Assembly: GCA_050248615.1 (NCBI GenBank)
Contig: JBFWSA010000017.1
Span: 1 to 46,752 of the forward strand
Source of the DNA: Simkaniaceae bacterium
Lineage (GTDB): Bacteria; Chlamydiota; Chlamydiia; Chlamydiales; Simkaniaceae
DNA: 46,752 nt
Direction of reading: 5' to 3'
Positions 3,071 to 4,129 of this stretch are shown here, piece by piece. Position 1 is the first letter of the stretch, and each line of letters starts with the position of its first letter. The translations under genes were made by a program, and so were the position numbers. A model generated the notes under the pieces. It made no database searches. It worked only from the letters and a program-made list of their open reading frames with translations, and was not told where the DNA came from.

Positions 3071-4129
3071 TCATGAATTTAAAGAGATTAGGTATTTTCG
3101 CACATAGTTGCGGTGCTTAGAGAGATATTCTGAAATGATTGAGTTTAAAACAGATCCTGTGTCTTGGGGTCCATAGAGGGAAGAATTAGCGACTTTCTGA
3201 ATAATTCTTGAAATCTCTACAGCAATATCCAGCTGCTTTTTGTTTGAATAACTTTTAGGATCTGAAAGATAGGGATTAACTACCCTTAAAACAACCTTAC
3301 TTCCGATCAATTGCTCCACAATATCTCGAGGAAACTTCTTGATTAAGAGTTGATATTCATCGACAAGAACATCTGCGACCGAATCGGTCATTTTCAAGGC
3401 ATATACACTATTAAGCGTATCTCTCATAAGACTTTGAAATCTTCCCTTTTTAAAGAGAGCCTCTCTCCCCTCTTTCTCTAATGTGGAACCTAAAGATTTA
3501 CTCTCCTTCTGCATTTTCTCACGGATCTCCAAAAGCTGCTCCCCAAGCTCCTGTTCAAAAAAGGCTGAGCAGAGCTTTGAGGCAAAGGTATTCCCTCGAA
3601 AATCATTAGCCACTGTAATTTGGCTACATTCCTGATGGATGACCTGTTTGAGAATCTCTCTGCAATTTGCTCTCTCTAAGGTCATTTCAATAAAAATCGA
3701 CTGAGACGTAGCACACTTATAGTAATTCGACATGAGAAAATATAACTCCTTTTCGAGAAGGAATTTTGCTAGTATTTTTTCATAAATCTCAGAGGGTTCA
3801 TCACCTCTTTGATGCAGAATCGCAACGACTATTTCCTCAGAGCATCGCTCTTTTACAAGCATCTCCTCAATAAATGTAAAGTCTTTACCCTCTTCTTTAA
3901 TGATCACAGGCACTAAATCAAAACTCACCGACGCTGATCTGACTTCTAAAGGCTCTTTGGGAAATAATGTAGGTAAAGAGGAAACAAGGCGTCCTCTTAT
4001 GGATTTTTTCTCTCCATCCAGATCAAGAAGGGGTTGGGTTTTTGAAACAAAATATCTTTTTTGCAGGCCCGATTCACCAGAAGGAAGTGAGGAATGATCC
4101 TTATGACGAAACGATTCAAGAGCAGCCAT
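3071..4129 (-). CDS. RasGAP-domain protein (eukaryote-like), candidate secreted effector
   Basis: Motifs DFRGNTFASK (arginine finger), GSKVVLRVVNPYLSDP (FLR..P motif) and ISRIIQKVAN (K..Q..AN motif) occur in RasGAP order. SD GGAGG upstream. Confidence 0.75.
   Translation of the reverse strand: MAALESFRHKDHSSLPSGESGLQKRYFVSKTQPLLDLDGEKKSIRGRLVSSLPTLFPKEPLEVRSASVSFDLVPVIIKEEGKDFTFIEEMLVKERCSEEIVVAILHQRGDEPSEIYEKILAKFLLEKELYFLMSNYYKCATSQSIFIEMTLERANCREILKQVIHQECSQITVANDFRGNTFASKLCSAFFEQELGEQLLEIREKMQKESKSLGSTLEKEGREALFKKGRFQSLMRDTLNSVYALKMTDSVADVLVDEYQLLIKKFPRDIVEQLIGSKVVLRVVNPYLSDPKSYSNKKQLDIAVEISRIIQKVANSSLYGPQDTGSVLNSIISEYLSKHRNYVRKYLISLNS

Follow-up and report, generated by a model that had tools for sequence, protein, structure and literature searches.

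Does an environmental chlamydia encode a RasGAP of the eukaryotic type, and what would such a protein do? The question is raised by a 46,752-nucleotide stretch of a Simkaniaceae genome (GenBank JBFWSA010000017.1; hereafter the window), in which a 352-codon open reading frame (ORF) encodes a protein that we call P0001. The initial annotation proposed that this gene specifies a RasGAP-like type III effector that silences host Ras or Rap; it gave no strand, and the ORF lies on the minus strand, the plus-strand frame being full of stops. Its fold, profile matches and catalytic residues assign P0001 to the RasGAP domain family. The features on which the argument depends are as follows.

3071..4129, minus strand: P0001 gene, 352-aa RasGAP-domain protein (single copy in the genome)
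4137..4141, minus strand: Shine-Dalgarno-like GGAGG, 7 nt ahead of the ATG at 4129
3890..4129, minus strand: residues 1–80, Ser-rich, low-confidence N-terminus; candidate type III secretion/chaperone region
3086..3889, minus strand: residues 81–348, all-helical RasGAP-fold domain
3575..3601, minus strand: finger loop FRGNTFASK, residues 177–185, with Arg178 as CGA at 3596-3598
3257..3304, minus strand: FLR-motif region (VLR in P0001), GSKVVLRVVNPYLSDP, residues 276–291, with Arg282 at 3284-3286
3185..3211, minus strand: SRIIQKVAN, residues 307–315, with Arg308, Gln311 and Asn315

Taken alone, P0001 matches the Pfam RasGAP model (PF00616) with E = 4.4e-4, and its 20.6 bits lie below the gathering score of 28.3 bits, which is a curation threshold and not a biological feature; its relatives P0077 (33.9 bits) and P0054 (79.1 bits) exceed that score. 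Against NF1, the signal strengthens from E = 0.13 for the single sequence to 6.8e-12 for a 5-sequence profile and 1e-19 for a 27-sequence chlamydial profile, which also reached p120GAP at 2.3e-21; the 13 PDB sequences that this profile matched at E≤1e-6 were all RasGAP-domain proteins. Structure comparison identified the all-helical RasGAP fold at residues 81–348, accounting for the whole domain, and the top Atlas matches were likewise RasGAPs (0.92, 196 features in common). No bacterial GTPase-activating protein (GAP) fold of the YopE/SptP/ExoS or LepB type was among the structural matches listed. The fold assigned by the initial annotation is supported.

To compare active sites, we took NF1 numbering from P0001-NF1 alignments, in which residue 79 of 1nf1 plus an offset of 1197 (the offset between 1nf1 and 7r03) is R1276. 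The three motifs occur in the order originally described, and the arginine finger is intact, with Arg178 aligned to R1276. Five further catalytic or contact residues of NF1 are kept: K1283 (K185), R1391 (R282), K1423 (R308), Q1426 (Q311) and N1430 (N315). According to the accessible part of PMC7437355, NF1 and KRAS form five salt bridges through K1283, R1325, R1391, K1419 and K1423, the last pairing with Ras D38; changing R1276 abolishes activity and R1391A reduces it 400-fold. The accessible part of PMC11751910 agrees on the roles of R1276, R1391 and K1423. R178 and R282 are invariant in all 11 closest relatives of P0001. Across 41 genome-derived copies, from the 30 genomes for which loci were returned, the finger column is Arg in 38 (with two gaps from trimming of the G342 protein and one Pro), the FLR Arg is retained in 38, the FLR Phe in 26, and the K1423 position is Lys or Arg in 33; the Lys185 and Ser188 columns are variable.

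How widely this gene is shared became apparent only with profiles. Of 400 genomes from this phylum, P0001 alone matched 4, profile A2 matched 18, and profile A3 (one genome not scored) matched 36, 31 of them at E≤1e-5. Counted by family code without G000, the carriers are 5/34 in its own family (f1), 11/90 in f8, 5/5 in f21, 5/46 in f22, 4/8 in f3 and 2/6 in f24, with no A3 matches in f5 (0/69) or f20 (0/29). Judged from these alignments, related genes with the same catalytic residues are present in many other environmental chlamydiae. The family has been overlooked because only 6 of the 27 aligned members of A3 reach E≤0.001 with Pfam; P0054 is WP_068471494.1 of Ca. Protochlamydia phocaeensis and is annotated as hypothetical only. 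The chlamydial profile retrieved 3290 proteins at E≤0.001 among 1.84 billion representatives; among the best 150 of these (68 scanned), the top ones mostly have no Pfam match and the lower ones are multi-domain RasGAPs of the eukaryote type.

Several genomes contain paralogues, and the family shows some structural variety. Locus L006 of G273 (6097-10902) carries three tandem RasGAP-like paralogues, the third without both catalytic arginines; in one copy from G273, the finger Arg is replaced by Pro and the FLR Arg by Gly, and one G361 copy has Tyr at the latter position. In L014, L018 and L019 (G352, G318 and G261), a tandem pair of RasGAP-like domains lies within one protein, the first of which apparently has neither the finger nor the FLR arginine. 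The G342 protein (L026) has a ~200-residue insertion after the finger motif, and the G346 homologue (L004, 1076-2190) is present as two overlapping ORFs, a Ser/Pro-rich piece of 144 aa and a domain piece of 237 aa. Outside the chlamydial set, the metagenomic RasGAP proteins P0098 and P0131 score above the Pfam cut-off, look neither chlamydial nor typically eukaryotic, and possibly come from other bacteria; P0067, P0068, P0071 and P0076 are large proteins that combine bacterial-type Ig/cadherin repeats with a strong RasGAP domain.

The route by which P0001 could reach a host is suggested by its genome and its N-terminus. The genome encodes a non-flagellar type III secretion system (T3SS), with a sctU-sctV-copN operon (CopN, HrpJ and TyeA families) and genes of the SctR and SctN families. 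A strain variant of P0001 has been called as 373 aa; we prefer the ATG at 4129, which is probably the correct start, because of the GGAGG spacing and because the closest homologue, P0003, begins at the same Met. From this start, 5 of the first 25 residues are Ser (top 4.4% of the genome's 1396 ORFs), as are 17% of the first 70 (top 1.1%). In keeping with the Ser-rich N-terminus first described, residues 1–80 are rich in Ser and modeled with low confidence, and they are probably disordered; this N-terminus is effector-like in that a test of composition only showed few hydrophobic residues, no Sec signal and no membrane span. Against the background of this genome, an S/P/T-rich N-terminus is found in 26 of 30 complete family members, 11 members with open or unclear 5′ ends having been skipped.

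A target within the bacterium is unlikely, because a search of the 36 carrier genomes gave no Ras-family match at E≤1e-10. This result bears on the alternative that P0001 is not secreted, and either acts in the cytoplasm on a GTPase of the bacterium or is the decaying remnant of a captured gene. The patchy distribution and the G346 gene in two pieces would fit such an account, but we give it little credence: this genome's four weak Ras-family matches are proteins that we take to be IF2, LepA, HflX and MnmE, the P0001 frame is intact in two other samples, and the domain is more conserved than the N-terminus (171/272 versus 34/80 identities to P0003).

We therefore favor, with a probability of about 0.6, a model in which P0001 leaves the bacterium through the type III system and, in the cytosol of a host that is probably a protist, binds a GTP-loaded GTPase of the Ras subfamily. 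Arg178 would insert into the GTPase active site, braced by Arg282 and Arg308, and the accelerated GTP hydrolysis would switch the GTPase off and lower Ras-GTP. Its substrate may be Ras or Rap. For the chlamydial RasGAP proteins in general, injection into the host cell is the most likely fate. The outcome is likely to be damped Ras-driven signaling or feeding-cup formation, although this is speculation; an effect on host feeding or growth signaling is plausible because in Dictyostelium the local inhibition of Ras by NF1 restricts how large macropinosomes and phagosomes become (PMC4374526, accessible part).

A number of observations weigh against this model. The fold match is moderate (root-mean-square deviation 3–4 Å), and other proteins of this fold act on Rap (plexin, SynGAP) or are scaffolds without catalytic activity (IQGAP). 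The Phe of the FLR motif (F1389) is V280 in P0001, K1436 corresponds to P321 in the loop after SRIIQKVAN, K1419 aligns to V304 or E305, and R1325 has no clear counterpart in a region that aligns poorly. In NF1, K1419A and K1436A weaken KRAS binding 30-fold and 20-fold, respectively (PMC7437355, same part). The conservation of the arginines is partly circular, the copies having been found by profiles that weight those columns. A family-model search did not detect YscJ/FliF in the genome, and profile A3 found no copy in G001, a 90% complete genome of the same genus, or in 29 of 34 relatives of its own family. As aligned, the catalytic residue set of P0001 is whole and the binding set partly altered; weaker or re-aimed binding of Ras is therefore possible, and an NF1-like grip on Ras is not assured.

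These substitutions are relevant to two other accounts of a secreted P0001. One is that the protein has little or no catalytic activity and binds and sequesters a GTP-loaded host GTPase or acts as an IQGAP-like scaffold, as might be expected from the missing basic interface residues, the changed loop after Asn315, the IQGAPs among its structural matches, and the paralogues in G273 and G361 that have lost one or both catalytic arginines. We consider this unlikely, since the loss of binding residues and retention of catalytic ones is the opposite of what a binding-only protein should display, and R178 and R282 do not vary among its closest relatives. The second, less likely still, is an active GAP whose interface has been remodeled for a substrate other than Ras or Rap, such as Rho, Rab or a lineage-specific protist GTPase. 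The changed NF1-type interface residues, the long branches and fast divergence of the family, and the variable Lys185 and Ser188 columns are compatible with this account, but the prevalence of Lys or Arg at the D38-pairing position argues against it; moreover, to our knowledge, all catalytically active proteins of the RasGAP fold act on members of the Ras subfamily.

Phylogenetic analysis places P0001 with its own chlamydial family, a check that had been suggested at the outset. In a 70-row tree (LG+G4), 31 of 32 chlamydial rows and two unplaced metagenomic proteins form one clade (98/95), with long-branch warnings. A mixture-model tree was built from 38 rows after 32 had been dropped, namely those on the longest branches, both unplaced proteins and near-copies that were thinned out. 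It recovers a group of f1 sequences that includes P0001 (99/95), an f8 group (99/97) and the union of the two (99/96); the chlamydial rows all fall on one side in only 14% of its bootstrap trees, and the approximately unbiased test does not reject such an arrangement (p = 0.361). In G098, the RasGAP gene is directly 3′ of a Leu dehydrogenase-like gene that also lies 1.9 kb from the P0001 gene, a linkage found in one of four family carriers. Our reading is one old capture before the f1/f8 split, after which the gene was inherited and often lost; across the whole phylum, there may have been one capture or several. P0001 thus appears to belong to an old, patchily kept chlamydial family. Since RasGAPs and their substrates are established as eukaryotic, transfer would have been from eukaryote to bacterium; the eukaryote rows were picked because they resembled the chlamydial profile, and no more than 4 are source-confirmed as eukaryotic, so a donor cannot be named. 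Of the original choice between a host-derived and a mimicking protein, the former stands, as P0001 is a homologue of eukaryotic RasGAPs and not a convergent mimic. The effector interpretation is partly supported, by fold, finger, the bacterial origin of the contig, T3SS genes, N-terminus and lack of a bacterial Ras-like substrate, without the notion of a one-off recent capture.

The window, contig C17, belongs to a 2.04-Mb genome (42.9% GC, 96% complete). Because RasGAP is a eukaryotic domain that giant viruses also carry, and because the gene's GC content of 38.9% is below the ORF median of 44.0%, we considered misassembly or contamination from a eukaryote or giant virus; independent contigs and the family tree already refute it, and we regard its chance as negligible. 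The gene is intron-free with a bacterial ribosome site, shares its contig with genes that we take to be dnaN, leuS, recF and smpB, and has its nearest relatives in the same chlamydial family, one of them adjoining the same Leu dehydrogenase-like gene. The window's DnaN is 74–86% identical to 13 of 15 matched loci, nearly all from chlamydiae and several from Simkaniaceae or Neptunochlamydia, so that the genome probably falls within or beside Simkaniaceae. With 4 rows excluded as possibly the source itself, 11 DNA runs from 8 studies contain at least 0.86 of the window's words; they sample freshwater, landfill, wastewater and hot springs, and the five hot-spring studies may be one campaign. In two runs from two other studies, the entire stretch lies within one contig each, with no indels and one substitution per run inside the gene. 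Habitat and general knowledge of environmental chlamydiae make a protist the likely host.

RasGEF-domain genes (for example, L091-L093), which would act in the opposite sense, are present in 64 of the 400 chlamydial genomes, with as many as 6 in one genome: they are found in 16 of 36 RasGAP carriers versus 48 of 364 others, related genomes not being independent, and in none of family f1. Among the neighbors of the P0001 gene, a TPS/filamentous-haemagglutinin-like gene with repeated Gly/Asn-rich units (2-2992, minus) lies directly downstream and runs off the contig start; the genome has five further similar loci. A sugar/ureide permease, a nucleoside hydrolase and a PfkB kinase cluster at 7565-10745 as a possible nucleoside or ribose salvage unit. 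An orphan ORF of 109 aa, oriented divergently from the P0001 gene (4280-4609, plus), a patatin phospholipase (5050-6036, plus), two ORFs with no family above cut-off (11532-12095 and 25012-25452, both minus) and an Exo_endo_phos protein (42081-43283, minus) are also encoded, and some of these may be further effectors.

The closest known systems are the NF1 GAP-related domain (PDB 1nf1, 6ob2, 6v6f) and p120RasGAP GAP-334 (1wer, 1wq1), both PF00616, and P0001 probably works like them. It differs from them in being bacterial, only ~15% identical and below the Pfam cut-off, in standing alone without a C2, PH, SH2 or Sec14 partner and with a Ser-rich N-terminus, in having VLR for FLR, and in lacking counterparts of K1419 and K1436. 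A RasGAP fold in another intracellular parasite of protists is found in the giant-virus Marseillevirus LCMAC101 (A0A481YRG9; Foldseek E = 5.7e-4), which is viral and 17% identical to P0001. YopE and ExoS, like SptP and LepB, are bacterial proteins that speed GTP hydrolysis by host GTPases, as is predicted for P0001. According to the accessible parts of the sources, Salmonella SptP is a convergent Rac1/Cdc42 GAP (PMC7542358) and Legionella LepB merely imitates RasGAP catalysis with a new fold, whereas P0001 is a true homologue of eukaryotic RasGAPs; the bacterial GAP effectors described there are convergent and act on Rho or Rab proteins.

Intracellular bacteria are already known to use GTPase regulators derived from eukaryotes: the accessible parts of PMC7542358 and 10.1101/350777 describe Legionella RalF (a Sec7 ArfGEF), LegG1/PieG/PpgA (RCC1) and Rab/Ras-like proteins. 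Like these, P0001 would be a horizontally acquired eukaryotic domain delivered by a secretion system to act on host small-GTPase signaling; the Legionella proteins are activators or GTPases that use type IV secretion, whereas P0001 would be a RasGAP off-switch in chlamydiae with type III. We found no description of bacterial RasGAP-domain proteins in the literature searched, including chlamydial genomics papers, although automatic annotation may already recognize the strongest members and supplements may include the domain. We tentatively propose, at somewhat less than even odds, that these genes are an undescribed environmental-chlamydial family of true RasGAP effectors, acquired in a single early capture, inherited and duplicated, and mostly invisible to Pfam, that forms with the RasGEF genes an on- and off-switch for host Ras and is the first case in which bacteria control the feeding or growth signaling of a host with the eukaryotic RasGAP enzyme itself. 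If so, host Ras/Rap shut-off would be added to the bacterial effector repertoire, the family would supply minimal, very divergent natural RasGAPs for the study of GAP catalysis and specificity, and the effects of chlamydial symbionts on protist feeding or growth would have a testable mechanism.
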